NCBI GenBank assembly: GCA_023244895.1
Contig: JAHFLL010000001.1
Coordinates: forward strand, 489,802-553,801
Length of the DNA: 64,000 bases
DNA from: Candidatus Liptonbacteria bacterium
GTDB taxonomy: Bacteria; Patescibacteriota; Minisyncoccia; UBA6257; 2-01-FULL-56-20
Direction: 5' to 3'
Each line of letters begins with the position of its first letter. Position 1 is the stretch's first letter. The notes under the pieces were generated by a model. The model did not search any database. It was not told the DNA's origin and saw only the letters and a program-made list of their open reading frames with translations. Shown here in pieces: positions 1,127 to 43,345 of this stretch. The translations under genes and the position numbers were made by a program.

Positions 1127-2902
1127 TTACGCAACTTCAGCCTGATAACAGGCTTCACAATATACTATCTCTCCGCGGTCAGGGGCATAGCTGGTTTCAA
1201 ATTTATTTTGACAAGGCTCGGCTCCATGAAAATGAATGTCCGTGTTTTGATAAGTCCCATTCTGCGACCTATTCCCAGCACACCCACAGGTCCTTTTCCA
1301 TAATTTTAAAGGGTTGAGGCGAGAGAAGCGCCTTTTATGGCGACAGTCAGAACACTTGTTTGGCAGGGGTAAATCAAACCGACGCAAGAAGGCAATTTCC
1401 GCGGGGACGAAGCGATAGGCTCGAGCGCAGGACGCGCAGGCGACCACCTCTTTTAATATATCGTCTCCTACTTCATCAATGGTTGCGGGCAGCTTCTCGC
1501 CTCTAATAGTTGCGGTGTGTTCAGAAGGAGCGCCGTCACACCACCTCCATCCCGTCTCCAATGCCCGTTCCTTAGTCAGCGGGAAATACACCTGCGCGTC
1601 CGTTTCGTTGTACCCATAAAGGGAAAAGTCATACGGCATGAACTCGCCATACTTCCAAACCCTGCCCTGCGCATCAACATAAGGATTACGTTCCATGTCC
1701 GCAATAATTTGAGTTCTCAGAGAGCGAAACTCTTCGGGTGTATATTGCTTATTTAAAATGCAATATTTTTTCTTGCGCAGACCAGAACAACCGAGAAGGT
1801 CTGCTACGTCTATACACCAAACACAATATTCAGTGTTTAGCGTGTTGCCGAGAGCGCACACATAAGAAAACTTAGCATTGTGCGTACCAGCACCTACATT
1901 CATGCACTCATAAATAAGCTCTACATTGTCACCCCACATAGTATAGTCATAAGCGTCTTTGGTATGCGCGTCCTTAATAAATTGACAGAAACGAACATTC
2001 TCCAGTCCGCGCGCCTGAAAAGAATCCTTGGCGTTTTTTGATTCATATATATAGTCTCCGGACACGTTCACGTTTTGGAAGCCATGCATAAACTTGTGCG
2101 GCACTGAACGCCAGACCTCCTCCGCTCGCGCCTGGAGCTGCAAGATACCCTCTTGCGTCCTCATACTCCGGCGCAGCGATTCTAATTCTCGGACATACTC
2201 TTCTTTAGAATGAGGCTTGTTCCAGATGTAATAACTCTTATTGCGCAGATTTGCGCAACCGAAACAATCCGTACAACCCCAAAGATTTTTAGAAAAAAAG
2301 ACATTCACGCAGTCGCTGGAATCTTCCGAAAAGAAAAGTCTTGATGACTTACGACAATTCACATCCTCATAACACAGATCCGATTCTCCTACTATCAGGA
2401 GGTCCATGGAGTCTTTTATATTAGACAATCTTCCGCCGTAAAGCACATCTTCGCAATAATCCGCATCAAAAATAAGATAGCAATTCTTAGACTCGCCCGA
2501 CTCGTTCACATATTCGCTATTAATCAGGGTGGGATGATTAGTCCCTAGTGCCACTAGGGGTGTTTCGCGGAGTAAGCCTTCTAACTGCTCAAGAAATGGT
2601 TTATGGGGATCATACTCCCGCCCATAATCTAATGGACTCCACCTGTCCGACCACCAACAAGGCGGACAATAGACCACGCATTGCTTATCGGGAGAATATG
2701 TGGAAAGAGTAATTTTTCTACAAAGTGCGCACTCCCGCTTATAGAGGTGGCGTTCGTTCCGAAACATGAGCCGCCGCTGGAGCCGACAATTGGGACAAAA
2801 CGTAGGTGGCGGCACCTTTATCCTCTCGTAGAAATTGAAATCCTCCGGCTCTATCGTGAAGTCGGATTTACAATTCTGACAGCTTTTTGTTTCTGAATTC
2901 AT
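1127..2902 (-). CDS. Cys-rich zinc-ribbon/beta-solenoid-like protein, paralog 1 (uncharacterised CPR family)
   Basis: N-term CQNC...CPNC...CALC...CPPCWW, central Cys repeats with CFGCxxL, C-term VYCEACY. Start moved to MNSETK (2902) by alignment with the paralogs. Confidence 0.85.
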   Translation of the reverse strand: MNSETKSCQNCKSDFTIEPEDFNFYERIKVPPPTFCPNCRLQRRLMFRNERHLYKRECALCRKITLSTYSPDKQCVVYCPPCWWSDRWSPLDYGREYDPHKPFLEQLEGLLRETPLVALGTNHPTLINSEYVNESGESKNCYLIFDADYCEDVLYGGRLSNIKDSMDLLIVGESDLCYEDVNCRKSSRLFFSEDSSDCVNVFFSKNLWGCTDCFGCANLRNKSYYIWNKPHSKEEYVRELESLRRSMRTQEGILQLQARAEEVWRSVPHKFMHGFQNVNVSGDYIYESKNAKDSFQARGLENVRFCQFIKDAHTKDAYDYTMWGDNVELIYECMNVGAGTHNAKFSYVCALGNTLNTEYCVWCIDVADLLGCSGLRKKKYCILNKQYTPEEFRSLRTQIIADMERNPYVDAQGRVWKYGEFMPYDFSLYGYNETDAQVYFPLTKERALETGWRWCDGAPSEHTATIRGEKLPATIDEVGDDILKEVVACASCARAYRFVPAEIAFLRRFDLPLPNKCSDCRHKRRFSRLNPLKLWKRTCGCAGNRSQNGTYQNTDIHFHGAEPCQNKFETSYAPDRGEIVYCEACYQAEVA

Positions 2903-2944
2903 ATTCTGCATACTACATGCCACATTCTACCTACTGCTTTTTCC

Positions 2945-4705
2945 TTATACCACCTCCGCATTGTAGCACTGCTCGCAGTAGACTATTTCTGGCCGGTCGG
3001 GGGCATACGGGGTTCTGAATTCTATCTGGCATTTTTCAGAACCATGCACGTGAACCACCTGATTCTTATATACGCTATTTAAACTGCCCACACCCGAACA
3101 CTGACATTTTCTTGGCCACAGCCCAATCGGAGTGCGGAATTTATCTCTCTCGGAGTGTCGACACTTCGGACAAAGACGCGGGATAGGTAAACCAAATCTT
3201 TTATAGAATTCCAATTCTTTTTCCAAAATGCGATAGACTCTGGCACACCCTTCACAAGATATTATCTCCTTCACTATTGCCGAGGTTGCGTCCTCTATCG
3301 AGTCCGGCAAAGCGGAAGAAGATGTGGTCGGCTCGTATTCCCGCTCTTCAATTTCTCGCCAACCAAACCCCTGGGACAGAGATTGTTCTTCGGTAAGGGG
3401 CATGTATTCAACCGCGCAAGACTCGTTATAAGCCAAGGGGGATGTCTCGGGCGGTAAAAACTCCCCGTATCTGTATGTCTTTCCCAGGGCATCTTTATAA
3501 GGAAGACTGTTCATGCTCGCGATAATTTTATCTCTTAACTTGTAATACTCTTGCTCGCTATATTGCTTATTAAAAATACAGAACTGCTTCTTCCTTAAGC
3601 TCACGCAACCGAAAAGATTGTTGGAAGAGTGACAGCCTATGCAATACTCCAAATTACTGGAGGAGGGCCAACAATCAAAGCAAAATTTAAGATTACTCAC
3701 ATTCTCACCGCAAGAAATACTTTCATAAATCAACTCGGCATTTATCCCCCAATTAGTGTAATCCATACAGTCTTTAACGCGGTCCGAAGATATTTGGGAA
3801 TATTTTACATTTTCCGCGCTGTCTATAATCAGATAGCTTTCATTTACATTCTTGCAGTTATACAAATACTCCCCCTCGGATCTTTCGTTTCTTTGAACGT
3901 GAGCGTACTTATTGGGATATTTCAGCCAAAAATCAAGAACTGTTTTTCTTATTTTCTGAAAAGCGGCATAGGAGCTGGTGTTAAATTCTTTAATTTTTTT
4001 AGCATACGACTCCTTATCGTAAGGCTGGTTAAAAATATGGTATTTTTTATGTCTTAGGCCAACACAGCCGAAGCAATCATTGCAATCTGAACAATCTTTC
4101 ATAAACCAGCAATTGCTTAGATTATAGCTATCCACCGCGAAACGGGCTTGAAAACAGTTGCCCGTATTGTAATTCTCATAACACAACTCGTTGCTCTGGA
4201 CGTCAGAAAACTCCATGCATTCCTTGAGATATCTACCCATATTACCGTACATGCAATTTTCGGAATCCCCGAAGTCAAAACACAGATAGCAGTTCTTGGC
4301 GCGGGAAGCCTGGTCGCAGTAATCGCTGTTTTCCAAAACCTGAACCGAACGGGATGCCCAGGGCACATCCCTGGAGAGGGTTTTAAATTGTTCAAAAAAA
4401 GTTTTCGAGAAATCATATTCCCGCCCATAGTCCATGGGATCCCAGGCATCCGACCACCAATAATCCCGTTCGTATATTTTTATATTCGAACTGTCCGGAA
4501 AAGAAGAAAATATTGTCTCCCCTTTTATTGCTTCTTTCTTGCGAAAAAGGTTTTTCTCGTTCCAAAAAACTAAGCGTCTTCGAAGCCGACAACTCGGACA
4601 CCAGGTCGGGGGCGGAACCTTCACGCGTTCATAAAATTGAAAGTCCTCCGGCTCGATAACGAATTCCGATTTGCAATTTTGGCAGTTTCTTTCCTCGGCG
4701 ATCAT
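2945..4705 (-). CDS. Cys-rich paralog 2
   Basis: Same architecture: CQNCK..IEPEDF..PPPTWCPSCR; CNDCFGCVGL; YGEFLP; VYCEQCY. Confidence 0.88.
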   Translation of the reverse strand: MIAEERNCQNCKSEFVIEPEDFQFYERVKVPPPTWCPSCRLRRRLVFWNEKNLFRKKEAIKGETIFSSFPDSSNIKIYERDYWWSDAWDPMDYGREYDFSKTFFEQFKTLSRDVPWASRSVQVLENSDYCDQASRAKNCYLCFDFGDSENCMYGNMGRYLKECMEFSDVQSNELCYENYNTGNCFQARFAVDSYNLSNCWFMKDCSDCNDCFGCVGLRHKKYHIFNQPYDKESYAKKIKEFNTSSYAAFQKIRKTVLDFWLKYPNKYAHVQRNERSEGEYLYNCKNVNESYLIIDSAENVKYSQISSDRVKDCMDYTNWGINAELIYESISCGENVSNLKFCFDCWPSSSNLEYCIGCHSSNNLFGCVSLRKKQFCIFNKQYSEQEYYKLRDKIIASMNSLPYKDALGKTYRYGEFLPPETSPLAYNESCAVEYMPLTEEQSLSQGFGWREIEEREYEPTTSSSALPDSIEDATSAIVKEIISCEGCARVYRILEKELEFYKRFGLPIPRLCPKCRHSERDKFRTPIGLWPRKCQCSGVGSLNSVYKNQVVHVHGSEKCQIEFRTPYAPDRPEIVYCEQCYNAEVV

Positions 4706-6459
4706 ACTACTTCGGAATTATAACAGCTCTCACAGTAAACTATTTCCGGTCGATCGGGGGCATAGGAAGTTTCAAACTGATTAGGACATCCGCCCTGGTG
4801 GCTGTGGTTAGGCTTATCGCACATGCACCCTCGGGTCCAAAGTCTGAGCGGATTCCTTTCCGCCAATCTCTCATAGTGCCTGCAATTAGGGCAAAGCCTG
4901 GGCAGAGATAGGTTCATGCGCTTATAAAACTGTAGTTCGGCGGGGATAAGTTTGAAAGCAGTCACACAGCTTGCTTCACAGTTGGCGGTATGATGGTTCT
5001 CTTGGGCATGAAGACACCCTATCACCTCCTCTAGGATGGAGTCAGGGGTGTCTTTGATATGGTCCGGCAGGTCCTGGGGTTGTTTGGTCACGGTGTATTG
5101 CTTGGTATCTGGGTCTCTCCACTTGTATCCCTGAACTAGAGCCTGCTCTTTGGTTAAGGGGAAGTACTCCTGGGCGATGGTTTCGTTGTAGGAGAAGGGA
5201 GAGAGTTCCGGGGGGAAGAACTCCCCGTATTTATATACTCTGCCTAGTTTATCTATATAGGGCATAGTATTCATATGCTCTATGATCTGGGGGACCAGAG
5301 CTTCATACTCCTCCTTGGTGTATTGCTTGTTCAAAATACAGTACTGCTTGTTGCGCAGGGCGACGCAGGCAAAGATGTTCTGACAACCGTGAGAGGCATA
5401 ACTATACTGCACGTTATGCCCGCCCCAAACGAATATATCAAAGAAGAATTTGGTTCCATTTAATCCAGTGTCAACTGATTCATATATGAGCTCGCTTGTT
5501 TCCCCTATGCCATAGCCGTCGTAAGAATCACTCAGGCGCACTCCCCCATTGATACAGAACTTACAGTCGCGAATGCCACCCCAGAAGTCGAAGCATGCTT
5601 TACAGTTGCTGGCCTCTCCCACGTTGTCGCCGGTAGTATTTTCTACCTTATACGTATTGGCATACTTCCTTATCGCCTTAAGCTTGAGCTTCTCAAATTC
5701 CTCCTTTACTCTTAAAACATTTCTATAGCTGCCCAGGTCCAATTCCAGCAATTTCCTACCGTATTCTTCCTTGGAATAGGGCTGGTTGAAGATATGATAG
5801 GATTTACCACGCAGATTAGTACAACCAAAACAATCATTGCACCCCTTGCATTGATATAAAAAGGCGGAGTTGGTGCAATTTTCTGAATTCTGTATATAGA
5901 AAGAGTGGGCTATCTTTTCTGATGAAGAGCCCTCATATACTAACTCTGAGTCAGTAACATTAAGTGAGTCCTCCGAGTCCTTCACGTTGCCGCATTTGGA
6001 AACATAGTTGGAATCTTCTATGCCCCAACATGCATGAGAAAGGTAAGAATTTTTCGCCTCGCCGGTGTGATTGCAATAGTCGCTATTAGTAGCCCGCGAC
6101 AGGAATAATGCCGGCATCGGAACCTTGTTTAGCAGCTCGCGATATTGTCCAAAGAAGGATTTTTCAAAATCATACTCGACTCCATAAGAAAGCGGGTCCC
6201 AGGCATCCGACCACCACATATCCCTATCATAGACGTTTATGCCGCTCTCCGGAGAGAAACAGGTTATGACATCCTTATCGTTCAGAGATTTACGACGATA
6301 CAGAGACCTCTCGTTGCGCCAGCTCATTCTCCTCACGCAACGGCAGTCAGGACAAAATGTCGGCGGGGGCATCTTTATACGTTCGTAGAATACAAAATCT
6401 TCCGGTTCTATCGTAAAATCCTTTTTACAATTCTGGCAATTTCTAATTTCCGGTCCCAT
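4702..6459 (-). CDS. Cys-rich paralog 3
   Basis: Same architecture; its TGA overlaps the ATG of paralog 2 (ATGA). Confidence 0.88.
   Translation of the reverse strand: MGPEIRNCQNCKKDFTIEPEDFVFYERIKMPPPTFCPDCRCVRRMSWRNERSLYRRKSLNDKDVITCFSPESGINVYDRDMWWSDAWDPLSYGVEYDFEKSFFGQYRELLNKVPMPALFLSRATNSDYCNHTGEAKNSYLSHACWGIEDSNYVSKCGNVKDSEDSLNVTDSELVYEGSSSEKIAHSFYIQNSENCTNSAFLYQCKGCNDCFGCTNLRGKSYHIFNQPYSKEEYGRKLLELDLGSYRNVLRVKEEFEKLKLKAIRKYANTYKVENTTGDNVGEASNCKACFDFWGGIRDCKFCINGGVRLSDSYDGYGIGETSELIYESVDTGLNGTKFFFDIFVWGGHNVQYSYASHGCQNIFACVALRNKQYCILNKQYTKEEYEALVPQIIEHMNTMPYIDKLGRVYKYGEFFPPELSPFSYNETIAQEYFPLTKEQALVQGYKWRDPDTKQYTVTKQPQDLPDHIKDTPDSILEEVIGCLHAQENHHTANCEASCVTAFKLIPAELQFYKRMNLSLPRLCPNCRHYERLAERNPLRLWTRGCMCDKPNHSHQGGCPNQFETSYAPDRPEIVYCESCYNSEVV
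5014..5373. repeat. 360-bp direct repeat copy A (copy B 38387-38746)
   Basis: Manual alignment at offset 33373: 7 mismatches, no gaps. Confidence 0.92.
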
Positions 6460-6480
6460 TTATTTTTTACCTCCCGTTTT

Positions 6481-6950
6481 CTATATTCTATCTTCCAACT
6501 TCTAGCTTCTATTCTACCATCCCCCTTTTCTTTAATTCTTCGTATAAATTACCGGCTAAAGCATCATGAAAAACGTCCAGAATATACGGGTTGGATTTGG
6601 CGGCCTCACTTGTCGCTTTTACTATGCCTTCTCGAAATGCCATGCCAAGAAGATTCTCTACCTCCAACTTCGTCTCCGGCGGAGCGGACTGAGCGTATTT
6701 CGGCAAGACCGAATCTTCCGACTTAGTAGGTTCTGCTGACCGGGCTACAGGAGCTACGCCCGTATAGGACTGGATAGACTGCTTGACCAGTTCGTGCCCG
6801 GAAACACCTTTCATCTCCGGATTTTCCTGATGACGCTTCAGCTCCGCGGCTACGCCGTGCAAATCTTGCTCTTGGACAGGTACTTTGATTTCTGGGGTTA
6901 GTTGATCGGGCATGTTGATTAGTAGTTAGAATTTAGAAGCTAGAATATAG
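6481..6950. repeat. Inverted pair of degenerate heptamer arrays (6481-6511 and 6920-6950) bracketing the 6509-6913 gene
   Basis: ctatattcta...ttctagcttcta vs tagaatt-tagaagc-tagaata-tag; 6481-6490 is the exact reverse complement of 6941-6950. Confidence 0.7.
6509..6913 (-). CDS. Hypothetical protein (CPR-type)
   Basis: 134 aa; C-terminal AFREGIVKA...NPYILDVFHDAL...LYEELKKRG. Confidence 0.75.
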   Translation of the reverse strand: MPDQLTPEIKVPVQEQDLHGVAAELKRHQENPEMKGVSGHELVKQSIQSYTGVAPVARSAEPTKSEDSVLPKYAQSAPPETKLEVENLLGMAFREGIVKATSEAAKSNPYILDVFHDALAGNLYEELKKRGMVE

Positions 6951-6993
6951 ACGAGACATCCTAGCGCGATGTTTTTATTGTATAATTTAAACT

Positions 6994-9560: not shown

Positions 9561-9586
9561 AGAGATACTTTAACTAGCGTAGGGCT

Positions 9587-9626
9587 AAAAGACAAATCCC
9601 CTACGCCAGCTGGCGCAGGGGATTTG
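9587..9626 (-). terminator. Intrinsic terminator after rplU
   Basis: Minus strand CAAATCCCCTGCGCCA-GC-TGGCGTAGGGGATTTG followed by TCTTTT. Confidence 0.7.
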
Positions 9627-9649
9627 CTTCAAGCTGTATGTTCTAAAAT

Positions 9650-9961
9650 TTACACGCTTACCACCGTCACTTCCGTAAGCTCTTGGCGATGACCCTTCTT
9701 CCTGCGATAACGAGTCTTGGAGTGATACTTAAAAATTATCTTCTTTTTATCCCGCATTTGGCGAGCTACTGTGGTCACAACCTTGGCACCTGCGACATAG
9801 GGATCCCCGACCTCTACCTTATCCCCATCCGCTACCAGTAACACCTTATCAAAAACCAAGTCCGCCCCGGCAACACCTGCCAGTTTTTCCACTTTTATCT
9901 TATCCCCCGCGGAAACCTTGTATTGCTTCCCGCCGGTTTCTATTACAGCAAATTTAGACAT
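9650..9961 (-). CDS. rplU: 50S ribosomal protein bL21
   Basis: AVIETGGKQYKV...GHRQ. Confidence 0.97.
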   Translation of the reverse strand: MSKFAVIETGGKQYKVSAGDKIKVEKLAGVAGADLVFDKVLLVADGDKVEVGDPYVAGAKVVTTVARQMRDKKKIIFKYHSKTRYRRKKGHRQELTEVTVVSV

Positions 9962-10043
9962 TGTATTTTATCGATCCGAACTGTCCCGAATGCCCCAAAT
10001 CACTTCGGATAATTCGGATGTATTCGTAGATTGGGATTACTTT

Positions 10044-10403: not shown

Positions 10404-10404
10404 A

Positions 10405-11400: not shown

Positions 11401-11446
11401 ATACCATACAGAATATATTATTTAGAAGTTAGAATCTAGTTCTGTG

Positions 11447-21275: not shown

Positions 21276-21971
21276 ATGAGCGCTAATTCTACAAAAACAT
21301 TTTCCTGGAAAGCGGCGATTCTCTTATCTTTGGGCGTAGGCCTGCTCGTAGCAGGCCTTTCCATTTTCCTGCAAACCAGAAGTCAGACCCGGCAAATCTT
21401 CCCTATAGGAGCAGAAAGCCCCGGGTCTATCGCAGAGGTTGTGGAACCAGTGGCAGAAGATCCAAAGCCCATGGCCGCGATTCCCGCGGCAGTGAGTCTT
21501 GGATCTTCTTTTGATGTCCCTAGTCAGCCGACACGATTACTCATTCCCGCTATCGGGGTGGATGCCAATATTCAGAGCGTAGGACTTTCTTGGAGGAATG
21601 ATGGAACCATGGGCATCCCCACCAACTTCACGGATGTCGCCTGGTATAATTTGGGACCCAGGCCCGGTATGCCGGGTAGCGCCGTGATTGACGGTCACTT
21701 GGATGGCAAGAAAGTTAAAGAGGCCGTCTTTTATAATCTCGGCAATTTGAAACCAGGCGATTCCGTAGGGGTGGTGGATCGGGCGGGTAAGACGGCGCAG
21801 TTCCGGGTTGTGGAAACTAAAATCTACGAACACGATGCCGTAACTACTGATATTTTTTCTAATGATTCCGGGAAGACTAGGCTCAATCTAATAACTTGCA
21901 CAGGAGATTGGATCAAAGACCAAAAAATGTATGACCGAAGAATCGTGGTGTTCACCGAACTTATTAACTAG
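21276..21971 (+). CDS. Class F sortase
   Basis: N-term TM; PTRLLIPAIGVDA, VAWY..GPRPG..GSAVIDGH, LNLITC, YDRR. Confidence 0.92.
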   Translation: MSANSTKTFSWKAAILLSLGVGLLVAGLSIFLQTRSQTRQIFPIGAESPGSIAEVVEPVAEDPKPMAAIPAAVSLGSSFDVPSQPTRLLIPAIGVDANIQSVGLSWRNDGTMGIPTNFTDVAWYNLGPRPGMPGSAVIDGHLDGKKVKEAVFYNLGNLKPGDSVGVVDRAGKTAQFRVVETKIYEHDAVTTDIFSNDSGKTRLNLITCTGDWIKDQKMYDRRIVVFTELIN

Positions 21972-22043
21972 ACGCCTAGCGAATTCAGGTCACGTAAACT
22001 CCCTCAAATATTCAAGGGTAAATATTTTTCCTCTCTACCTCGG

Positions 22044-23891
22044 CTAAACCGTACGCTCTTTTGAAATTACCGCCAGCGCGGTCAAGACGAATAGGAGGAG
22101 ACCCGAGATTACGATAATGTCTCCCGAGAATGTACTATCTTCTGGAAGGAATCCTGCGTCAGGAAGACTGGGGGTGGTCACTAGAACATCAGCGAAGGCG
22201 TAGCCCAGCGCGGTCAAACCATTAGCCTTACCTTCTGCAGTAGCGATATTCCTGGTTGAAGCTGGAACGTTTGTCCGGCAGGTATACGCCCAGATTTCAC
22301 TCGGCTCAAGCAGATTATTACTGTTCAGATCTCCAGAGATACGAGAGACTGGAGCGCACTTGTCGTCCGTTACGACCACATCGTGCAACGCAACTACGCC
22401 CGGATTTATTACGGTATAAGCATAGGTAACATCACCTCCTCCGAATGGGAACGGGGTCAGGCGATCGGGCACCTTTATGATATTAATGAGCGGGGGCGTG
22501 AGTGGTGCGCCGACGACCACCGTTGCGATTGCGGTGGCGATCGTGGCTTGGTTGGCGCCGTCGTCGCTATGCCCAATCGCAATCGCGGTATTGGTGGTAG
22601 TGTTCGCGAGCGTTGCGGCGCAACTGTATTTCCAGTATTCGCCTGGATCAAGCTTGGCGTTGTTGTTAAGGTCGCCGGAAACAAAATTTACCGGAGCGCA
22701 CTTGTCGTCCGTTAGTGTAACATTAGTCAGAGACTGCTGACCTCCAACATTCCAAGCCGTATAGTTGTAAATGACCGAGCCGGGACCCGCAGGCAAGGCT
22801 AATGGCGTAGGAACTTTGACTATCCCAATCAGGGGTATAATCCTGCCGCCTCCGGCACCGATAAGAACTGGCGCCGCCAGAGGAACGAAGGTGTTAACAA
22901 TAGTACAGGTCCTGTTTTCGCCCGCGGCGAGCGTCACGTTCCCGCTTGAGTTACAAGCCCCGCTGAAACTTCGCACATAGGAAGTATTCGCATCTTCGCT
23001 AACCGCGTACGTGCCCGCGGCGAGAGAATAAGAAATTCCAGGCGCCGCGACTCCCGCTGCCGGGCTTCCCGACACCTCCGTACTGGAAGAATTTTTCACG
23101 TGCACGCTGAAACTTGAAGAAATCGCCGCACCGCCACCGCCGTTAACAACCAGCTTAACCACATTAAGAGTAGCGGGTAGTGACCCGCAGGTCGGTACGG
23201 TGATAGTGTTCGTATCAGTAGTGATGGTTCCACCAAACGCCAAAGACCTCCCTGTCCAAGTAGTGTTGGCGCCTACGGTTACCCCCGCGTTACTGATAAC
23301 GGTACCCGCTAATGTGGTGTTGGCGGCAAATGTTGCGGCTTGCGTTGGCGTCCAGAAAACGTCGCAAGCAGACGCTCCCGTGAGAGTAACGGTCGCACCC
23401 GCTGTGGAAGTAAGCGCACCAACTGGCCTGAAGATGTATGTTCCACTCCCGTTTAACGTAAGCGGACCTCCTATGTCCATCGCTCCCGAGCTACAATACA
23501 CTCCGGGCACGTACACGCCAGCAGTGCCATGGGTTATGTCGGTGGAGAGATTAATCGCTCCTCCCCCGAAAGTAAAAGTACATAATTGAGAAGCCAGAGC
23601 AGATAGAGCGCTCCCCTGGTCCGCGCCCGCGATAGCGTACGGAGCACCGGAGCCATAGTTTATATGTGTGCCCAAAGGAGCAACTGCTGGTCCGGTAGTG
23701 AACCCTACTCCTCCATTAATCGTGGTCCCTGCGGTAGTGTTGGTATAGGTACTACCCAGCACGCCATAAGCTGCCGCCGCTCCCAGAGATGGGGTTGTGG
23801 CCGCCAGCGCGGCAATTGGCCCAGCAAAGCCGAGCACGAATACCACGGTTAATATGGCTACTATTATTGTATTTCTACTAGGCTTTTTCAT
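22044..23891 (-). CDS. DUF3494 ice-binding-like surface protein with repeat stalk and LPDAG sorting signal
   Basis: LGAAAAYGVLG, PGVY, GTYIF, ACDVFW, GRSLA; two LTDDKC..GDLN.N..L.P.E.W.Y repeats; LPDAG + TM + KER tail. Confidence 0.85.
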   Translation of the reverse strand: MKKPSRNTIIVAILTVVFVLGFAGPIAALAATTPSLGAAAAYGVLGSTYTNTTAGTTINGGVGFTTGPAVAPLGTHINYGSGAPYAIAGADQGSALSALASQLCTFTFGGGAINLSTDITHGTAGVYVPGVYCSSGAMDIGGPLTLNGSGTYIFRPVGALTSTAGATVTLTGASACDVFWTPTQAATFAANTTLAGTVISNAGVTVGANTTWTGRSLAFGGTITTDTNTITVPTCGSLPATLNVVKLVVNGGGGAAISSSFSVHVKNSSSTEVSGSPAAGVAAPGISYSLAAGTYAVSEDANTSYVRSFSGACNSSGNVTLAAGENRTCTIVNTFVPLAAPVLIGAGGGRIIPLIGIVKVPTPLALPAGPGSVIYNYTAWNVGGQQSLTNVTLTDDKCAPVNFVSGDLNNNAKLDPGEYWKYSCAATLANTTTNTAIAIGHSDDGANQATIATAIATVVVGAPLTPPLINIIKVPDRLTPFPFGGGDVTYAYTVINPGVVALHDVVVTDDKCAPVSRISGDLNSNNLLEPSEIWAYTCRTNVPASTRNIATAEGKANGLTALGYAFADVLVTTPSLPDAGFLPEDSTFSGDIIVISGLLLFVLTALAVISKERTV

Positions 23892-23949
23892 GTGTTTTTA
23901 CCGGCAAGTTAGCTTTAGTTAATTATTTGTAACTAGCCTTTATACAAAC

Positions 23950-23975
23950 GCCGTCTCGGCAGGCGCCTTATTACA
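23950..23975 (-). promoter_or_regulatory. Putative ECF promoter type B (TGTAAT-N16-CGGC)
   Basis: Upstream of the ice-binding-like gene. Confidence 0.65.
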
Positions 23976-24013
23976 ACATGTCTAAGCCTGGAGTATTATC
24001 GCCTACCCTGCTT

Positions 24014-24364
24014 TTATTTTTCGTCAAGTTTTGCCGCCGCCTCCGGAGTTGACACTGTTTTGCTCATAAGAAACAGCCGGACAATCGCGAGGGCAATCAT
24101 CCAATAGACCAGCATCGCAAGCAGGGTGGTCCACTCAAAGATACTGCCCTGCACGACGGTCCTCGGAAACACCGCGAGAAATGGAGCGGTAAAGGGCCAG
24201 GTTAGGGCGTATATGAAGCTGCTAAACCCAGCCGTGGGGTTTGCCCCCGTCAGCTTGAGCACAAAACGGAATACGAGCAATACTTCCAAAAGAGAAACAA
24301 GATACCATACGATCTGAGTGCCTTTAAACAACGGCTTAGTAGTGGGAGAGTTATATGAGTCCAT
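24014..24364 (-). CDS. YggT-family membrane protein
   Basis: RFVLKLTGANP..F..FIY.LT.PF.APF. Confidence 0.8.
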   Translation of the reverse strand: MDSYNSPTTKPLFKGTQIVWYLVSLLEVLLVFRFVLKLTGANPTAGFSSFIYALTWPFTAPFLAVFPRTVVQGSIFEWTTLLAMLVYWMIALAIVRLFLMSKTVSTPEAAAKLDEK

Positions 24365-24408
24365 AGTTTTTAATGTTAATTAGTGTGTTTCCAGAACGAC
24401 TATTTATT

Positions 24409-24657
24409 TTAGCGACGCAATATCCGCAGAATAAAGATGAACACGCACGCTCCTAGGAGTGCGACTAGAAAACTGTAGATATTAAATCCTCCCACCCCGC
24501 TTTCTCCGATGATACTCATCAGCCACCCGCCGATGAAGGCGCCGGCTATACCGACCAGAATATTAAGCAACGCTCCCTGCTCGGCATCCGTCTTCATTAT
24601 TAGAGAGGCTACCCAACCAACTAGAGCACCAAACACTATCCATATAACAATTCCCAT
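24409..24657 (-). CDS. GlsB/YeaQ/YmgE (transglycosylase-associated) stress membrane protein
   Basis: WIVFGALVGWVASLIM...NILVGIAGAFIGG...VALLGA. Confidence 0.92.
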   Translation of the reverse strand: MGIVIWIVFGALVGWVASLIMKTDAEQGALLNILVGIAGAFIGGWLMSIIGESGVGGFNIYSFLVALLGACVFIFILRILRR

Positions 24658-24674
24658 ATTTTTGTAATTAAGTG

Positions 24675-25784
24675 TTATTTTGTTTTGAAGACCATCGGTT
24701 CTCCGCGCACAAGTCCAAGACTATTCTGCGCCACCCCGCGAAAATAGTAGTTAGTTCTCGGAATCAACTCGGACGCTCTTGCATCAACCGATATTACACT
24801 TGATCCTGCCCCAACCGACTTCTGCTCGGTTGAGCGCAATAAGGCAGAACTAAAGATGGAGTCCGGACTGTACTCATACCAGTATCTGGTTTCCGCGCCA
24901 TTTGGATTAACCGTACCCCGCAAGGTAACGGAAGAAGTGCTTATATTAATAGCGCTCCTCGTAATGACGGAGGGTGCAGCTGCCGAGACTGGGCCAGTGG
25001 TTTTGAAGTTAAGTATCATGCCATTCACGGTGCCAAATTGATTTTGGGCGTTGAGGCGAAAATAATACGTGGTATTGGGGTCCAGACTAGCAAGAGATGC
25101 GGACACCGACACCCTGTCCATACCGTTTCCAGCGGAAATAATTGCCGTGGTATTCCCCAGGTCAGCGGTTTTGCCATACTCAAACCAATATTGCGTAGAT
25201 ACTTTATTGGGGGTTACTTCTCCGTTCAGATTGGCAGTAATTCTTGATATTTGATTTGCCGCTAAGGTTTTTACTACCGGAACACTGCCCACTATCGGAG
25301 GATTGCTGGGACTAGTCTGGAAGGAATACTGCGTGCCAACCGTTTGGCCATATTGATTTAGAGCCACCAGGCGGAAATAGTAGGTTGTGTTTTTAGCTAA
25401 TTCCGTAATATAGCCAGGCGCAGAGATTGAGACGAATCCAGACCCAACCGTTTGGCTTTTACCCGATATTTTATTGTTCAGATCAGAAGAAGTACTGTAC
25501 TCATACCAGTAGCTGGTCAAGGCACCATTTGGAGTTACAACGCCACCTAAAACCGCGGCTATGTCAGAAGCGGCAACATTGGCGCTGGTCGTCACTAAGG
25601 GCCTTCCGGGTTGGCGCGCCTGGACTGGAGGTGTGCTGGTTGGACTTACGTCCACCACCACTTCAGTAGTTGATGTGGTGTTGGCGCCAGGAGAAAACCA
25701 GGTCGTATTCTGACTGGCATATACGATAATCCCGCCGATTACCAATAGAACAACTACTCCGACCGCGACCGTAACTTTGTTCAT
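24675..25784 (-). CDS. Membrane-anchored protein with three FN3-like repeats
   Basis: Three repeats of L.G.V.PN...T.YW[YF]EY...T.YYFR..A.N..G. Confidence 0.85.
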   Translation of the reverse strand: MNKVTVAVGVVVLLVIGGIIVYASQNTTWFSPGANTTSTTEVVVDVSPTSTPPVQARQPGRPLVTTSANVAASDIAAVLGGVVTPNGALTSYWYEYSTSSDLNNKISGKSQTVGSGFVSISAPGYITELAKNTTYYFRLVALNQYGQTVGTQYSFQTSPSNPPIVGSVPVVKTLAANQISRITANLNGEVTPNKVSTQYWFEYGKTADLGNTTAIISAGNGMDRVSVSASLASLDPNTTYYFRLNAQNQFGTVNGMILNFKTTGPVSAAAPSVITRSAINISTSSVTLRGTVNPNGAETRYWYEYSPDSIFSSALLRSTEQKSVGAGSSVISVDARASELIPRTNYYFRGVAQNSLGLVRGEPMVFKTK

Positions 25785-33701: not shown

Positions 33702-33774
33702 AGCCACCTCCCGGACTCGAACCGGGGACCTTCACTTTACAAAAGTGTTGCTCTACCAACTGAGCTAAGGTGGC
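33702..33774 (-). tRNA. tRNA-Thr(UGU)
   Basis: GCCACCT/AGGTGGC, anticodon loop TT-TGT-AA, T arm CCCGG-TTCGAGT-CCGGG. Confidence 0.95.
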
Positions 33775-33923
33775 GCTACGAGCCCAATAATAAGGAAAAG
33801 CGGGGTTTTTGTAAAACGGCTAATTGTTAAATTTGGGTAATTTTTGTACAATGAACCCGGTTGGAAAACCAGCCGAATCTCCCTAAAATCCCGCCCTGCG
33901 GGATGGTGGGCAAAACAATATTT

Positions 33924-37094: not shown

Positions 37095-37158
37095 GATTTA
37101 GAACTTAGTCATTAGGACCTAGCGGGAGATATACTTCAAACGGAAAATTTGCCCGATT

Positions 37159-37563
37159 CTATCTTTTAAGTAGGCTGGAATGATAAACGTTCGGTTCAAA
37201 AGATTTCATAACCTTCACCTCCGGATGCCAATCAAACTCATCTAAGTGGGATCGAAGAGAATCTGCCAGCTGGACTTGGTCGTAGCCCAAAGCGATAACT
37301 TCCGGACGATGCTGCCTCACCACTCCCCAAGTTTCTATTTCCGCGTCCCCTATCACCACCTGGTCCACCTCGTCTTCGTCCAACAAGTGCTGGAACCTTT
37401 CTTCTAGATTCATTTCCGGTAAATGACCCTTTAAATGTTCAATCACATGGTCCTGCGCCACAACGGCGATCAAGTACTGACCCTGATTTTTAGCTTCTTT
37501 TAAAAACTCGCGATGCCCGCGATGTATACCGTCAAATGTTCCAAACACCATTACCTTACGCAT
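37159..37563 (-). CDS. Cytidylyltransferase-family protein (RibL/FAD synthase-like)
   Basis: FGTFDGIHRGH (HxGH), IALGYDQ, YHSSLL. Confidence 0.88.
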   Translation of the reverse strand: MRKVMVFGTFDGIHRGHREFLKEAKNQGQYLIAVVAQDHVIEHLKGHLPEMNLEERFQHLLDEDEVDQVVIGDAEIETWGVVRQHRPEVIALGYDQVQLADSLRSHLDEFDWHPEVKVMKSFEPNVYHSSLLKR

Positions 37564-37595
37564 TGCAGAATGAATTATGAATTAAGAATTGGGAA

Positions 37596-38039
37596 TTAGG
37601 GATAGTGGATGAGGATGCCCGCGGACTTGCTAAATTCGTGTTCGTCTTTAGCGCCTTCTGAATCTTCCCAGCGCGGACCCATAAAAATATCCGTGACGTA
37701 GCCCGAACCCAAAACATCTCTCCAGAATATTTTAAAATCAGCGTCTGGCAGTGATTCCAAGTTTATGGCGCCGTACACGTCTTCGCTAAATACATCTACC
37801 GCCGAAAAAATAGGAAAGTCATTAGCCTTCCTAAGCTGCTCCGCGAAATCATCTAGGGCGCGAATATTCTCCCATATTTTATCCCGCCCATCCGAAGCAA
37901 TCATTCCAGCTACATATCCTAGCTTCTCTTGATTACCTCTAAACTCCTTAATCGTTGAAAGCAGGGTGGCCTTTAGACTATCCAAGTCTTTTATGGAGTC
38001 TATCTCGGATTGTATTTTATCTCTTATTTTTTTGTGCAT
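37596..38039 (-). CDS. DUF4406/nucleoside deoxyribosyltransferase-like protein
   Basis: GYVAGMI...IFMGPRWEDSEGAKDEHE...GILI, matching the WExSxGAxxE motif. Confidence 0.6.
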   Translation of the reverse strand: MHKKIRDKIQSEIDSIKDLDSLKATLLSTIKEFRGNQEKLGYVAGMIASDGRDKIWENIRALDDFAEQLRKANDFPIFSAVDVFSEDVYGAINLESLPDADFKIFWRDVLGSGYVTDIFMGPRWEDSEGAKDEHEFSKSAGILIHYP

Positions 38040-38116
38040 GTTAAATAGTTGGAATTAGGATTTATTTAGAAATTAGAGCAATTAGAAATTTACTTTCTAC
38101 GCTCTACTCTGTGTCT

Positions 38117-39835
38117 TCAAGCCACTTCCGCATTATAACACTGCTCGCAGTAAACCATCTCTGGCCGGTCGGGCGCGTAACTGGTTTCAAACTCATTGGA
38201 GCAACCCGGCTTCATACACTTGCGATGCCAGAGCTTATAGGGATTTTTAAGCTTGAGGCGTTCGTAGTGCCTACAATTAGGACATAATCTAGGAATAGGT
38301 AATCCTATCTTCTTGTAAAACCCCAGCTCTTGGGGTATCAGCTTGAAAGCCGACGTGCATTGATGATTGCATCTTGCCCCATGCCCACACCCTATCACCT
38401 CCTCTAGAATAGAGTCGGGGGTGTCTTTGATGTGGTCCGGCAGGTCCTGGGGTTGTTTGGTCACTGTGTATTGCTTGGTATCTGGGTCTCTCCACTTGTA
38501 TCCCTGAACTAGAGCCTGCTCTTTGGTTAAGGGGAAGTACTCCTGGGCGATGGTTTCATTGTAGGCGAAGGGAGAGAGTTCCGGGGGGAAGAACTCCCCG
38601 TATTTATATACTCTGCCTAGTTTATCTATATAGGGCATAGTATTCATATGCTCTATGATCTGGGGGACCAGAGCTTCATACTCCTCCTTGGTGTATTGCT
38701 TGTTCAAAATACAGTACTGCTTGTTGCGCAGGGCGACGCAGGCAAAAACGTTTGAAGAGGCGTTGCAAAAGTCGGTAAATTCAACATTGGCCAGGTTGCC
38801 AATAGAGTTGGTGGAAAATTTTATGCCAGTGCTTTCTCTTCCTCCGGTCGCATATTCGTAGGATAAATCAGAATAAATGAGTCCGCTTATATCCATACTA
38901 TCTTTTAGATAGTATACGCGCATGGCGTTCTTGACGTTTTCAAGCTCCCAGCCCTCAAAACAGTTATGGCAATTTTTGGCGTTAGAAATAGCATCTCCAT
39001 CGGAATTAGCGCACTTTATGACGTCCGCCCAACGATGTAGACAGTTTTCCATCATCACCCTAAATTCAGTTTTAAATTTATCTAGATTAGAATGGCTTCC
39101 AAAATCGAATTCTTCCGACACTTTTTTACGATATTCTTCCTTGGTATATTGCTTATTGCGTATCACATACCTCTTATTCCTTAGGTTGTGAGACATTACG
39201 CAGTCCTGGCAATTCACGCAGTCAAACAGAAACCAGGAATCCACACAGTCAGTAGCGCGAAAAATAAAATGGCAGTTATTACATCTACCCGAATATGCGT
39301 CCCCGTAACACATATTGAGGCTCTCTGCATTTAAACAATCATAAGCATGAACAGAATTATCTACTGCCCGAGAATAATAAACATCTTCACAGTTAACGAC
39401 CGAGTACCCTAAGTAAACATTCTTAGATTCTCCGGTCATGTTGGAATAGCTGACGTTCTCGGAGTTATGGCGTTGCCACAGAGCCATGTGCGGTACCGCT
39501 CTGCGCAATTCCACAAACTGCTCAAAAAATGTCTTGGAAAAATCATACTCCCGACCATACTCTATCGCTTCCCACCCATCCGACCACCAGCAATCATTGC
39601 AATACACGACCAACTCCTTGTCTGGGGAACAGAAGGTAATAGTGCTCTTCCCACAAAGCGCGCATGCCCCCTTATACAGAGAGCGCTCATTGCGAAAGCA
39701 GATCCTTCTCTGTAGTCGGCAATCCGGACACCAGGTTGGAGGCGGAACCTTAATACGCTCATAGAAACCAAAATCATCCGGCTCTATTACAAATGCGCTG
39801 TGACAACTTTGGCATGTCTTGGTTTCCGGTTCCAT
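38117..39835 (-). CDS. Cys-rich paralog 4
   Basis: Same architecture as paralogs 1-3. Confidence 0.88.
   Translation of the reverse strand: MEPETKTCQSCHSAFVIEPDDFGFYERIKVPPPTWCPDCRLQRRICFRNERSLYKGACALCGKSTITFCSPDKELVVYCNDCWWSDGWEAIEYGREYDFSKTFFEQFVELRRAVPHMALWQRHNSENVSYSNMTGESKNVYLGYSVVNCEDVYYSRAVDNSVHAYDCLNAESLNMCYGDAYSGRCNNCHFIFRATDCVDSWFLFDCVNCQDCVMSHNLRNKRYVIRNKQYTKEEYRKKVSEEFDFGSHSNLDKFKTEFRVMMENCLHRWADVIKCANSDGDAISNAKNCHNCFEGWELENVKNAMRVYYLKDSMDISGLIYSDLSYEYATGGRESTGIKFSTNSIGNLANVEFTDFCNASSNVFACVALRNKQYCILNKQYTKEEYEALVPQIIEHMNTMPYIDKLGRVYKYGEFFPPELSPFAYNETIAQEYFPLTKEQALVQGYKWRDPDTKQYTVTKQPQDLPDHIKDTPDSILEEVIGCGHGARCNHQCTSAFKLIPQELGFYKKIGLPIPRLCPNCRHYERLKLKNPYKLWHRKCMKPGCSNEFETSYAPDRPEMVYCEQCYNAEVA
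38387..38746. repeat. 360-bp direct repeat copy B (copy A 5014-5373)
   Basis: 353/360 identical by manual alignment. Confidence 0.92.
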
Positions 39836-39873
39836 TTTTTTACTTTTTACATTCTACCTACCACCTTCCATCT

Positions 39874-41598
39874 TCACGCTACTTCCGCATTGTAGCATTG
39901 CTCGCAGTAGACGACCTCTGTCCCGTCGGGACGGTAGCTGGACCTAAACATATTGGGGCACCTGCCCTCGGGATGGTTGGTATGGCTCGCGGTATTTTGA
40001 TACACCTTATAGTCACATCTGCATTGCTGAGGGGCGGAAAGGCGATTCGGACCGCGGGCGGTCATGCGTCGGTCGTGACGACAATCGGGACACATCCTGG
40101 GAATTGGAATATTCAAACGCTTATAGAATTGCAACTCTGGCGGAATAATACGATAGTTTTTATCGCATTTTACGCAAGAAAATATCTCCCTACTCACATC
40201 CGCCACGTTAAGGTCTCCTATGGCGTCCGGAACGTTATCCCATTTCAAAGTTTCTTTGCCATAGGTACCGCGGGGATATTCTTCCCAGCCGAATCCCAGC
40301 GCCTCCGCCCTCTCTTTCGTAAGCGGAAACTGTTCTTGAGCAACAGTTTCGTTATATCCGAAGGGACCGAGTGAAGATGGGAAAAATTCTCCATATTCTC
40401 CGCTCACCTTCATGTCCCCCACTATCTTATCTCGCAAAGATTCATATTCATCTTTGGAATATTGCTTATTCAAAATGCAATAATCCTTTTTGCGCAAACC
40501 GGCGGAACCCAGGCAGTGGTTGGAATTAAAACAATTAAGGGCATACTCCATAAAGGTAGAACTCCAGGCCTGCGCGCAGGACACACAGTTAGACACGTCT
40601 ATGCCGGTATTAATGGAATTATAGATTGTGCTTGCGTTTCTGCCCGCGGTGCTCACGTCCACGCAATCCTTAGCGTTGCGCCAAACATGCTCTCCGTAAG
40701 CGCAATCTTCCGCTTCATAAGAATGGAAACACTCTCGGCAGTTTTTCGCGTCGGATATGTAGTTCCCGGATGAGCCCGGCGCGTTTACAATCTCCGCGTA
40801 TTTTCTGGGCTGGGTTTTAATAAATTCTAAAAACTTGGCGCGCATAGCCTCTACCCCGCTTGCGGTATCAAGCCGTGCCTCCGTTATAAACCCTTCATAT
40901 TCTTCTTTGCTTAAGGGCTTATTGAAGACATAGTATTGGCGATTACGCAGATTGACGCATCCAATACAGTCACTGCAACCCCTACAGTCGTACAGAAAAT
41001 AGGAGTTTCTGCTGTCATAACAAACTTTACTATAGACAAGCTGATAACAGTTGTAGCAATCGTCACTTTCATAAGAAAGTTCGGTCTGGTGCGAGAAAGA
41101 AAGGTCCAGCGAGTCCCGACATTGCTGTACCCAATAGGAATGAATACAACCTTCATTGTTGGAGGACTCTACCAGCATATAGCAATCCTTATTATCCGCG
41201 GAAATATTCACGTACTCCGAGTTCACGCTACGCACGTAAATCAGCGCCACCTTGGGCACTTTTTTATAAATCTCATTAACCTGCTCTAGAAATGGCCGGC
41301 TTGGGTCATAATCCTGACCGTATTCTGTCGCGTCCCAGTCATCTTTAAACCAGCACTCATAGCACCAAACCGGATATGGTTTATTGGGACTATACATGGA
41401 AACCACCTCCCGCTTGCACTTATCGCAGGCGCGCTTATAGAAGACACGCTCGTTACGAAAAGCTAGTCTGCGCTGGGCGCGACACAAGGGACACATTTTC
41501 GGCAAAGATACGCCGATTTTTTCGTAAAACGTAAAATCATCCGGCTCTATCGTAAAGTCCTTTTTGCAGCTCTGGCAGGTTTTAGCTTCCGGTCCCAT
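39874..41598 (-). CDS. Cys-rich paralog 5
   Basis: Same architecture. Confidence 0.88.
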   Translation of the reverse strand: MGPEAKTCQSCKKDFTIEPDDFTFYEKIGVSLPKMCPLCRAQRRLAFRNERVFYKRACDKCKREVVSMYSPNKPYPVWCYECWFKDDWDATEYGQDYDPSRPFLEQVNEIYKKVPKVALIYVRSVNSEYVNISADNKDCYMLVESSNNEGCIHSYWVQQCRDSLDLSFSHQTELSYESDDCYNCYQLVYSKVCYDSRNSYFLYDCRGCSDCIGCVNLRNRQYYVFNKPLSKEEYEGFITEARLDTASGVEAMRAKFLEFIKTQPRKYAEIVNAPGSSGNYISDAKNCRECFHSYEAEDCAYGEHVWRNAKDCVDVSTAGRNASTIYNSINTGIDVSNCVSCAQAWSSTFMEYALNCFNSNHCLGSAGLRKKDYCILNKQYSKDEYESLRDKIVGDMKVSGEYGEFFPSSLGPFGYNETVAQEQFPLTKERAEALGFGWEEYPRGTYGKETLKWDNVPDAIGDLNVADVSREIFSCVKCDKNYRIIPPELQFYKRLNIPIPRMCPDCRHDRRMTARGPNRLSAPQQCRCDYKVYQNTASHTNHPEGRCPNMFRSSYRPDGTEVVYCEQCYNAEVA

Positions 41599-43327
41599 TT
41601 CTTTTTTTTACTTCCTACGTTTTGCCTACCACTTTTTATCTTTACGCCACTTCTTGATTATAACAACTCTCGCAATACACTATTTCCGGTCGGCCGGGGG
41701 CATAGCTGGTTTCAAACTCATTGGGGCAGTCCGACTTCATGCATTTGCGGTGCCAGAGCCTGCGGGGATTGCGCATTTTAAAACGCTCTGTTCTGCGACA
41801 GGGATAACAATATTCCGGAACCGGGATACCCATTTTGCGATAGATCATAAGTTCCGTAGGGTGTAAACGGAAAGCACCCACGCAAAGCGGGTTCCTTGTT
41901 TTTGCTTCTTCATCTTCTTGTGTTCGACAACCGATAGTTTGGCTTAGGATATCATCCGAAGCCTCAGCTACGGTGGACGGCAATTGGTCTGGAGTCATAG
42001 TGACTTTATGGTTGGTAGCCGGCTTGTCGTACCAACTATAACCCTTTTGAATTGCCTCTTCTCTAGTCAACGGAAAGTAGTCCTGCGCCATAGATTCGTT
42101 ATAGGCGAACGGGGAGACATCCGGAGGATAGTATTCGCCCCACTCCCCGGTTTTTCTCATATGCTCTACGATCTTCTTTTTTAAATCCAAATACTCCTCC
42201 TTGGAATATTGTTTATTCAAAATGCAATACTGTTTTTGTTTCAATCCAAAACAGCCGAAACAATTATTAGCACCAAAACACATGTCGCAATAACAGGAAT
42301 CAGTTATGGTGCTAAAGCAACTGCGAGCGACGATGGTGCGATGCGGGGTATCCACCCCTTGCGTCTCGTAGGATAGTTCGGCATTTATTATTTCCGTGCA
42401 ATCCCTACAGTCCTCAGTGTTTCGCCAAGCATCCTGCATATAGGCCACATCCTTATTGTCGCGACAGTTAAAACAATAATTCGCTCTTTGAGTGTTCTCC
42501 AGGTAGTCTCCGGAAGATTCCTGAGCCTGGGTACCGTGATAGTTTTTTACCGGCTTAGTTAATCTAAAGCCAGCGAATTTTTTAAGTTGCTCCCGGATAG
42601 ACAATCTTGTCCGGGTAAACTCTTTCTTTCTTTGCTCGTATTCCTCTTTAGAAAGCTGTTCGTTAAACCAACAATATTGCTTATTTCTTAATCCCCAACA
42701 GCCGAGACAATCGACGCAACCTCGACAGTCATCCGAAAAATAGATGTTTACACAGTCGGCGCAATTGCTTATCCAGGCGCAATTGGAACATTTTGCCAAG
42801 TTAATGCTCTCGTAGCAGAGTTCGGAGCTCTCTATCATGTAGCAATCAGAACACATAAAGCACTTGCGCTGGTTCCAACTGCCATACATGCACTTTTCGC
42901 TGGTATCGCTCGTGACCAGCATGTAGCAGTCCTTGTTATCTTGGGACTGATTTGTGTATTCACTATTTACGCTATTCGCATTAACCAAAGCAAGATGAGG
43001 AACTACTCGGCGCAATTCTTCGTATTGCTCAAAAAACGGGCGGTTGAAATCAAAGTTCCGCCCATAAACGGATGCGTCAAAAGCGTCCGATTTCCAATAG
43101 TCCTGCTTGTAGACCGGAAATGAGACGTCTGGTCGGTAAATGGAGATTATGTCCTCCCCGGTAGCATCGCACTTGCGCTTATAAAAGTTGTACTCGTTTC
43201 TATCCGAAAGCCGCCTAATATATCTGCACTCCGGGCAAAGAGTCGGAGGCGGCACATCTATTTTTTGATAAAACGTAAAATCATCCGGCTCTATCGTAAA
43301 GTCCTTTTTGCAGCTCTGGCAGGTTTT
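41525..43327. repeat. 59-bp identical direct repeat at 41525-41583 and 43269-43327 (5' ends of paralogs 5 and 6)
   Basis: taaaacgtaaaatcatccggctctatcgtaaagtcctttttgcagctctggcaggtttt in both. Confidence 0.9.
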
Positions 43328-43345
43328 TACTTGAGATTCGGTCAT
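41642..43345 (-). CDS. Cys-rich paralog 6
   Basis: Same architecture; ATG overlaps the NUDIX stop. Confidence 0.88.
   Translation of the reverse strand: MTESQVKTCQSCKKDFTIEPDDFTFYQKIDVPPPTLCPECRYIRRLSDRNEYNFYKRKCDATGEDIISIYRPDVSFPVYKQDYWKSDAFDASVYGRNFDFNRPFFEQYEELRRVVPHLALVNANSVNSEYTNQSQDNKDCYMLVTSDTSEKCMYGSWNQRKCFMCSDCYMIESSELCYESINLAKCSNCAWISNCADCVNIYFSDDCRGCVDCLGCWGLRNKQYCWFNEQLSKEEYEQRKKEFTRTRLSIREQLKKFAGFRLTKPVKNYHGTQAQESSGDYLENTQRANYCFNCRDNKDVAYMQDAWRNTEDCRDCTEIINAELSYETQGVDTPHRTIVARSCFSTITDSCYCDMCFGANNCFGCFGLKQKQYCILNKQYSKEEYLDLKKKIVEHMRKTGEWGEYYPPDVSPFAYNESMAQDYFPLTREEAIQKGYSWYDKPATNHKVTMTPDQLPSTVAEASDDILSQTIGCRTQEDEEAKTRNPLCVGAFRLHPTELMIYRKMGIPVPEYCYPCRRTERFKMRNPRRLWHRKCMKSDCPNEFETSYAPGRPEIVYCESCYNQEVA

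Follow-up and report, generated by a model that had tools for sequence, protein, structure and literature searches.

The DNA analysed here, a window of 64,000 nucleotides from a Candidatus Liptonbacteria bacterium (contig JAHFLL010000001.1, positions 489,802 to 553,801), contains six intact open reading frames (ORFs) on the (-) strand that code for paralogous Cys-rich proteins of 567-598 amino acids (aa), each with 31-39 Cys. They form two triplets (A1 to A3 and B1 to B3, Table 1), as a previous sequence-only reading had described, and the motif layout given there was found in all six copies. The copies align end to end at pairwise identities of 37-55%, and their G+C content is 43-48%, with 48% for the genome. 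This genome (G000; G### denotes other genomes and L### loci in these genomes) is a single contig of 840,672 bp, where a profile search of 3,698 ORFs of at least 50 aa identified 17 full-length copies (553-607 aa) at 8 sites. They occur singly or in runs of up to four amid housekeeping genes, and one quartet sits about 2.7 kb left of the window. The use of about 10 kb for these proteins in a small genome is real, but the scale is larger than first noted, with 17 copies totalling 29,658 bp, or 3.5% of the genome. Our comparisons indicate that the family very probably works together with one clade of VirD4-like ATPases, the main feature here and one that the sequence-only reading could not reveal.

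Family libraries gave no Pfam, NCBIfam or PADLOC assignment above cut-off for the copies (3 of the 6 in the case of PADLOC). Weak matches to zf_Tbcl (PF13451), zf_Tbcl_2 (PF23477) and CxxC-x17-CxxC (TIGR04272) fell on the terminal zinc modules, but the fingers cover a small part of the protein and all six copies missed the cut-offs (best 19.3 vs 27, 17.3 vs 24, and 18.9 vs 36). A sequence search with B3 returned 7,992 matches among the 8,000 candidates scored, with uninformative names and the best non-self match at 56-57% identity; the organism names of close homologues point to Patescibacteria. No RNA holder was listed. PDB contained no sequence relative of the family at E<=1, ESM Atlas gave unnamed clusters only, and a search for shorter forms, with 1 match among 3 candidates, says little. 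The only match in PHROGs, of unknown function, was that of solenoid 1 of B1 (41642-43345) to PHROG 15341 (E 1.6e-9), suggesting that related coils may occur in phages.

An AlphaFold2 model of B3 built on a 125-row alignment (predicted local distance difference test, pLDDT, 87; predicted template modelling score, pTM, 0.85) shows zinc-finger modules at both ends and two beta-solenoids of 12-residue coils, each with a conserved and a variable face. The N- and C-terminal CxxC modules are alike (E 1e-10), and the copies presumably bind zinc, since the CxxC pairs are conserved. In the family alignment (149 full-length copies from 24 genomes, after dropping those of <520 aa or with <480 profile positions covered), variability had a period of 12 in both solenoid blocks (autocorrelation 0.56 and 0.39). 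Taking eight coils together, conservation was seen at offsets 0-4 (1.1-2.2 bits) and hypervariability at offsets 7, 9, and 10 (3.4-3.8 bits); offset 6 was aromatic in 36%, and offsets 5 and 8, being small or hydrophobic, presumably point inward. Gly, Asn, Ser, Asp, and aromatic residues abound on the variable face, which has no basic character. The model and the period-12 variability support the earlier proposal of a beta-solenoid with a Cys ladder, in which a constant scaffold carries a variable surface. The proposed absence of a signal peptide is also supported: the top 19-residue hydropathy among the six copies is 1.03, so that neither a signal nor a membrane segment is evident (no dedicated signal-peptide predictor was used). 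Foldseek against PDB and the viral set gave no match at E<=0.001 (best Z by VIA, 5.3), and this null is weak evidence for a new fold, because the domains were not folded alone. Weak fold matches covered residues 124-237 and 273-394 and involved small beta-helices, including the antifreeze protein of the beetle Tenebrio (1EZG), which has the same 12-residue coil and inward Cys/Ser ladder (Z 5.1, root-mean-square deviation 8.2, 71 residues aligned). However, this score is within the range of common arrangements, and the family has no evident signal peptide and carries type-specific faces.

Between paralogues, the framework is conserved and the repeat blocks diverge, in agreement with the sequence-only reading. 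Mean identities for framework, solenoids, and variable face were 48.9%, 29.5%, and 14.1% in the 15 pairs of the six copies, and 45.9%, 29.5%, and 12.6% in the 136 paralogue pairs of this genome. Orthologues often reverse this order, as in B2 vs G017 (75/87/95%), B2 vs G015 (67/81/92%), A3 vs G016 (66/82/85%), and B1 vs G015 (72/78/77%). The variable face was 62-95% identical in most orthologue pairs across genera, where synonymous sites are saturated, and its proportion of nonsynonymous differences (pN) was 0.02-0.21 in six orthologue pairs with saturated synonymous sites. When all pairs were binned by framework alone, face identity was 66% (n=14) at 65-70% framework identity and 76% (n=5) at 70-75%. 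There are counter-examples, namely one pair with 71% framework yet 38% face identity, and A2, whose best relative has 22% face identity. The variable face is under purifying selection within types, and its identity of 13% between paralogues but 62-95% in most orthologues argues for fixed specificities rather than ongoing diversification. The copies were rejected as targets of a diversity-generating retroelement, as no reverse transcriptase (PF00078) matched in the 96%-complete single-contig genome (0 matches). In addition, the long contigs of three sequencing runs (one study, with one run possibly the source) displayed no differences. The ligand-recognition repertoire that had been proposed is supported, and its ongoing diversification is not. 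Stable one-to-one orthologues had been named as evidence against such an array, and this applies in part, because several copies have orthologues in other genera (B2 78%, B1 71%, A3 70%), in which purifying selection acts on the variable face.

The best within-genome identity of a copy had a median of 45% and reached at least 60% in 2 of 140 copies, which led us to reject recent in-place duplication. A relative of at least 60% in another genome was found for 51 of the 149 copies, usually with different gene neighbours. The types are thus old, under purifying selection, and reassorted. Swapping of solenoids 1 and 2 is rare (2 discordant pairs among the 149 copies), and an all-or-none copy number was rejected, given one match in G054 and one full copy in G271. 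Whole types are gained, lost, or moved to other sites, with an occasional conversion of their framework, and in this way the repertoire changes.

Three VirD4-like ATPase paralogues are present in the genome. The 794-aa ATPase directly downstream of A3 was rejected as the specific partner, because its query found a match in 30 of 31 genomes, whether or not they carry the family. A 480-aa ATPase encoded outside the window was 76-95% identical in seven family-positive relatives, and was absent from the same secDF locus in the four family-negative relatives read. It forms one clade with 727-755-aa forms of other classes (support 100/99; 37 rows), whose marks are W-x-EKFD within the all-alpha domain and, at the very end, P-[LMIV]-[IV], as in the C-terminal EPLI tail; an EARK motif was rejected as diagnostic, as it is missing in two family-positive ATPases. 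The clade ATPase scored above the Pfam cut-offs for TrwB_AAD_bind (PF10412), T4SS-DNA_transf (PF02534), TraG-D_C (PF12696), and DUF87, and has no sequence relative in PDB. Walker motifs are present, with GKSGxGKS and DEF invariant, and both the nucleotide-binding part and the all-alpha domain of TrwB/VirD4 are recognizable. No N-terminal membrane anchor was evident in the 480-aa or the 727-755-aa forms, whose starts are polar (read by eye, no topology predictor). The all-alpha domain is 95% identical within the class vs 75-80% for the nucleotide-binding parts. Adjoining the clade ATPase is a gene for a 618-aa ATPase with a family-like CxxC-x17-CxxC finger (PF23477 above cut-off; L052:9944-11800; G000 375943-377799). 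Upstream of the clade ATPase lies the gene for a 464-aa protein without a Pfam match (L052:5982-7376; G000 371981-373375), which is 47-55% identical in family-positive relatives vs 31-44% in negative ones and may be a split N-terminal partner of the ATPases.

The distribution of the clade ATPase closely followed that of the family. Among 30 relatives, 7 had both, 1 the family only, none the ATPase only, and 22 neither; the 8 family-positive genomes held 4-34 matches (fragments included), an intact ATPase was present in 7 of them, and 2 of the 22 family-negative relatives hold 60% copies of the ATPase. In 300 genomes of the phylum, a 9-row clade profile gave 15 with both, 1 with the family only, 1 with the ATPase only, and 283 with neither. 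Sixteen genomes lay above a score gap of 648 to 599 bits; seven of them were in the profile, and eight of the other nine were family-positive. A single-sequence ATPase search of the same 300 genomes matched 7, of which 6 were family-positive. The corresponding counts in 250 genomes of the class were 30, 2, 4, and 214 (score gap 665 to 624 to 572 bits), where G271 alone was in the clade profile and a few genomes recur from the earlier samples. The ATPase lay within 3 kb of a family match in at least 20 of the 30 class genomes with both (at most about 5 candidates scored per genome). The family is carried by about 5% of the phylum genomes and 13% of the class genomes sampled, and its presence varies within several families (f1, 7/18; f29, 3/7; f65, f25, and f181). 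The link holds across classes and where the genes lie far apart. The tail also tracks the family: each of the 19 complete ATPases that were read in genomes with the family had an EPLI-type tail, and the tail was lost in four of seven family-negative carriers (G009, G020, G337, and G371), three of which had also lost EKFD. A fifth such carrier, G418, has kept the tail, with a family relic about 700 bp upstream.

A complex of ATPase residues 48-480 with B3 residues 6-572 was predicted with a score of 0.70 (runs 0.70, 0.71, and 0.58), and the best of three controls scored 0.00. Of 157 solved complexes, 116 attained this mark, as did 2 of 215 mismatched pairs; for the alignments used here, these numbers are approximate. 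The runs share at least 90% of contacts, and partner pLDDT was at least 89. In the model, the ATPase tail (472-480) lies among B3 residues 53-66, 130, 141-142, and 494-519, plugging a Tyr-lined pocket between the two zinc modules and solenoid 1, while the all-alpha-domain helix before EKFD (190-214) runs along B3 172-210. The contact residues Y130, Y141, and L142 are conserved at 87%, 99%, and 78%, respectively, and 18 of the 20 solenoid-1 contact residues fall outside the variable face, which is left free. Conservation of the whole interface is barely above average (1.97 vs 2.12 bits). The predicted complex supports binding, and it agrees with independent evidence because it uses the tail that decays with family loss and the all-alpha domain, with its 95% identity in the class.

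Near-constant pairing with the ATPase clade and the predicted docking suggest that the copies are likely interchangeable, target-specific adaptors. We favour an adaptor repertoire that selects cargo for a dedicated coupling-protein-like motor, a reading to which we give about an even chance. According to this model, the 17-copy family, which travels with one dedicated VirD4-like ATPase, would dock on it through the conserved face, with the EPLI tail in the pocket and the all-alpha helix along solenoid 1. Each type would bind its own conserved ligand through the opposite, type-specific face; the composition of that face makes a protein the most likely ligand. Once bound, the ligand would be passed on to the ring motor in the manner of TraM with TraD or IcmSW-LvgA with DotL, and the motor would thread the cargo toward membrane ATPase partners or a type IV secretion system (T4SS). 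The cargo, the direction of transport, and any link to the VirB4 locus near dnaA are putative.

Type IV coupling proteins (T4CPs; VirD4/TraD/TrwB/DotL) share Pfam domains with the partner ATPase, and the docking is predicted at their known recruitment sites. In the systems characterised so far, their all-alpha domain binds substrates directly and their C-terminal extensions recruit adaptors such as TraM and IcmSW-LvgA (PMC8740702). According to our prediction (0.70 vs 0.00), the family would bind the C-terminal extension of its ATPase. However, the ATPase here is a 480-aa protein without an evident membrane anchor and is not near virB4. Unlike TraM, IcmSW-LvgA, XVIPCD, and BID, the family comprises 1-34 copies with type-specific faces and no solved relative, and is not a single adaptor or a short signal on varied enzymes; TraM and IcmSW-LvgA were not among the fold matches listed. 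The family and its ATPase would work like a coupling protein with adaptors, yet belong to no described system.

The same contacts could also be those of an exported protein. The copies might be secreted substrates, recruited by the ATPase through the conserved face and exported into the host cell via the T4SS of Patescibacteria, with the variable face binding a conserved host target. Effector sets are typically patchy in distribution and hold many copies of proteins with binding repeats, and a VirB4-like gene is present near dnaA. The predicted all-alpha-domain contact is moreover the mode by which X-Tfe effectors bind VirD4, and known coupling-protein substrates need an unstructured, often basic tail (PMC8740702). 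The copies instead end about 5 residues past a folded zinc finger, in acidic or hydrophobic residues of the type EV(A/V), and none of the 17 has an added catalytic domain, all being 553-607 aa. In F and Dot/Icm systems, the C-terminal extensions of coupling proteins bind adaptors. We regard secretion of the copies as the chief alternative to the adaptor reading, but as unlikely.

Fixed specificities and one shared ATPase would also fit a split receptor, in which copies sense a conserved phage protein or a metabolite (e.g., a nucleotide) inside the cell and switch the ATPase on or off in defence or signalling, with no transport. The clade ATPase has weak HerA and mad8 matches in PADLOC, but the paralogous ATPase gives the same weak matches, and the three copies tested have none. 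The copies also lie amid housekeeping genes, not in islands; these results give no support to the defence repertoire suggested by the sequence-only reading. NUDIX genes adjoin 3 of the 8 family sites (window 43342-43788; G000 339414, 479102, and 479529), but NUDIX matches are numerous for a genome of 840 kb (17), and in five relatives only about 5 of 64 lie within 2 kb of a copy. A nucleotide-processing neighbourhood is thus weakly supported, and such a sensor is in our judgement quite improbable.

Two of the copies share a 366-bp tract, which covers framework only. In two sequencing runs this A1/B3 tract is one collapsed unitig at about 1.5x depth, and a contig of the third run spans it without differences, so an assembly artefact was rejected. 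The copies of relatives contained no further tract with an identity of at least 92% across 60 bp. TAG-rich intergenic runs of period 7 (TAGAAGT-like) occur in the window at 6481-6516 and 38046-38085, with 97 strong runs genome-wide, and recall the TAACTGA heptamer repeats described elsewhere (PMC4679880). The runs were found in 9 of 20 short spacers beside family genes vs 66 of 440 other spacers. This enrichment, the conversion tracts, and the 30-41 Cys per copy across the family would suit a hypervariable or selfish array, or a metal store, linked to the ATPase by history only. However, the copies are ancient, the variable face is purified within types, and the ATPase link extends across classes and over distance; this reading is largely refuted and very improbable. 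Overall, adaptors are favoured over effectors, sensors, and a neutral array or metal store because of the predicted binding through a folded pocket, the lack of a free tail and of a catalytic addition, and the free type-specific face.

Several observations weigh against the adaptor reading. Related genomes are not independent, and the three samples overlap in a few genomes. An intact ATPase with its tail is retained in two genomes without a family match (G295 and G515), and no clade ATPase was detected in four family-positive ones (G022, G343, G557, and G322), although G343 may reflect an assembly gap because its paralogous ATPase match is missing too. The other two types of ATPase likewise have a well-conserved all-alpha domain (83% and 88%). 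About 32 kb separate the clade ATPase of this genome from the closest copy, and virB4 is far off as well, the VirB4-like gene near dnaA being about 450 kb away. The model comprises one copy (B3) and a monomer of a presumably ring-forming ATPase, and of the three ATPases the clade ATPase alone was modelled as partner. No cargo was identified, and orthologues share no conserved neighbour fit as cargo.

Table 1. Features of the window and the family-specific ATPase (positions in the window unless marked G000).
Feature	Position	Strand	Remarks
ATP795, 5' part of gene for 794-aa VirD4-like ATPase	1..1035	-	N-terminal hydrophobic segment; directly downstream of A3
Copy A3	1127..2923	-	598 aa from GTG; start probably ATG at 2902 (591 aa); 70% orthologue in G016
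Copy A2	2945..4705	-	586 aa; start overlaps A1 stop (ATGA)
Copy A1	4702..6459	-	585 aa
A1 tract, 366 bp	5014..5379	-	97.5% identity with B3; framework past solenoid 2, gene conversion
Period-7 TAG-rich repeat run	6481..6516	-	directly upstream of A1; such intergenic runs are numerous genome-wide
Copy B3	38117..39835	-	572 aa; used for folding and complex prediction
B3 tract, 366 bp	38387..38752	-	counterpart of A1 tract
Solenoid 2 of B3	38732..39037	-	aa 267-368
Solenoid 1 of B3	39194..39460	-	aa 126-214, 12-residue coils; conserved face is predicted ATPase docking site
Copy B2	39874..41598	-	574 aa; conserved type, orthologues in five other genera (61-78%)
B2 tract, 68 bp	41516..41583	-	5' end; 97% identical to B1 43260-43327
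Copy B1	41642..43345	-	567 aa; orthologues 71% (G015), 67% (G017)
Family-specific 480-aa ATPase	G000 373941-375383		outside window

Other genes were observed near the family. TrmB-type regulator genes, often divergent, are neighbours of family arrays in six genomes from other classes (L094, L102, L105, L108, L109, and L110). In four relatives (L025, L048, L056, and L081), family genes repeatedly had cutA-like and leucyl-aminopeptidase-like genes, as named by eye, next to them. The window also contains two tandem adenylate-kinase-like genes, both under NCBIfam cut-offs (47947-49117), and a sortase gene adjoining genes for an ice-binding-like/DUF7507 protein and a fibronectin-III-like protein (21276-25784).

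No description of the family or of its pairing with the ATPase was found in the literature searched, which included few subscription papers and no supplements, where family tables could list it; the available part of one report does not mention the family under the terms searched (10.1101/335083). In Patescibacteria, 5,713 VirD4-like proteins were counted in 2,918 genomes, 148 of them near virB4, so that most are unlinked to virB4; their role is open and co-option was left open (PMC12102498). The ATPases here are of the same kind as these orphan T4CP homologues. The accessible portion of that report separates no clades and names no partners, whereas here one clade is tied to one family. The present analysis contributes counts of co-occurrence at the genome level, the decay of the tail, the faces of fixed specificity, and a predicted interface. 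The finding names an ATPase clade, a partner family, and a predicted interface (a four-residue tail and a Tyr-lined pocket), all of which can be tested with purified proteins and no culture of the organism. The T4SS of Patescibacteria is essential in the one species tested (PMC12857230).

A streamlined genome here devotes 3.5% of its DNA to a receptor repertoire. F-box/cullin-type substrate receptors combine a constant docking module with variable repeats, and many receptors serve one engine. The analogy with the family implies no homology, and the engine here is a RecA-fold translocase, not a ligase. It is possible, if doubtful, that the family is a bacterial counterpart of these receptors. 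Its solenoid receptors, tens in number and interchangeable, would each be dedicated to one conserved protein and would all attach to the same motor, itself derived from a coupling protein, which would move or unfold the captured targets at the interface with the host. If so, the epibiont would have a menu of exchangeable means to exploit its host, and a first role would be found for the orphan T4CPs of Patescibacteria.

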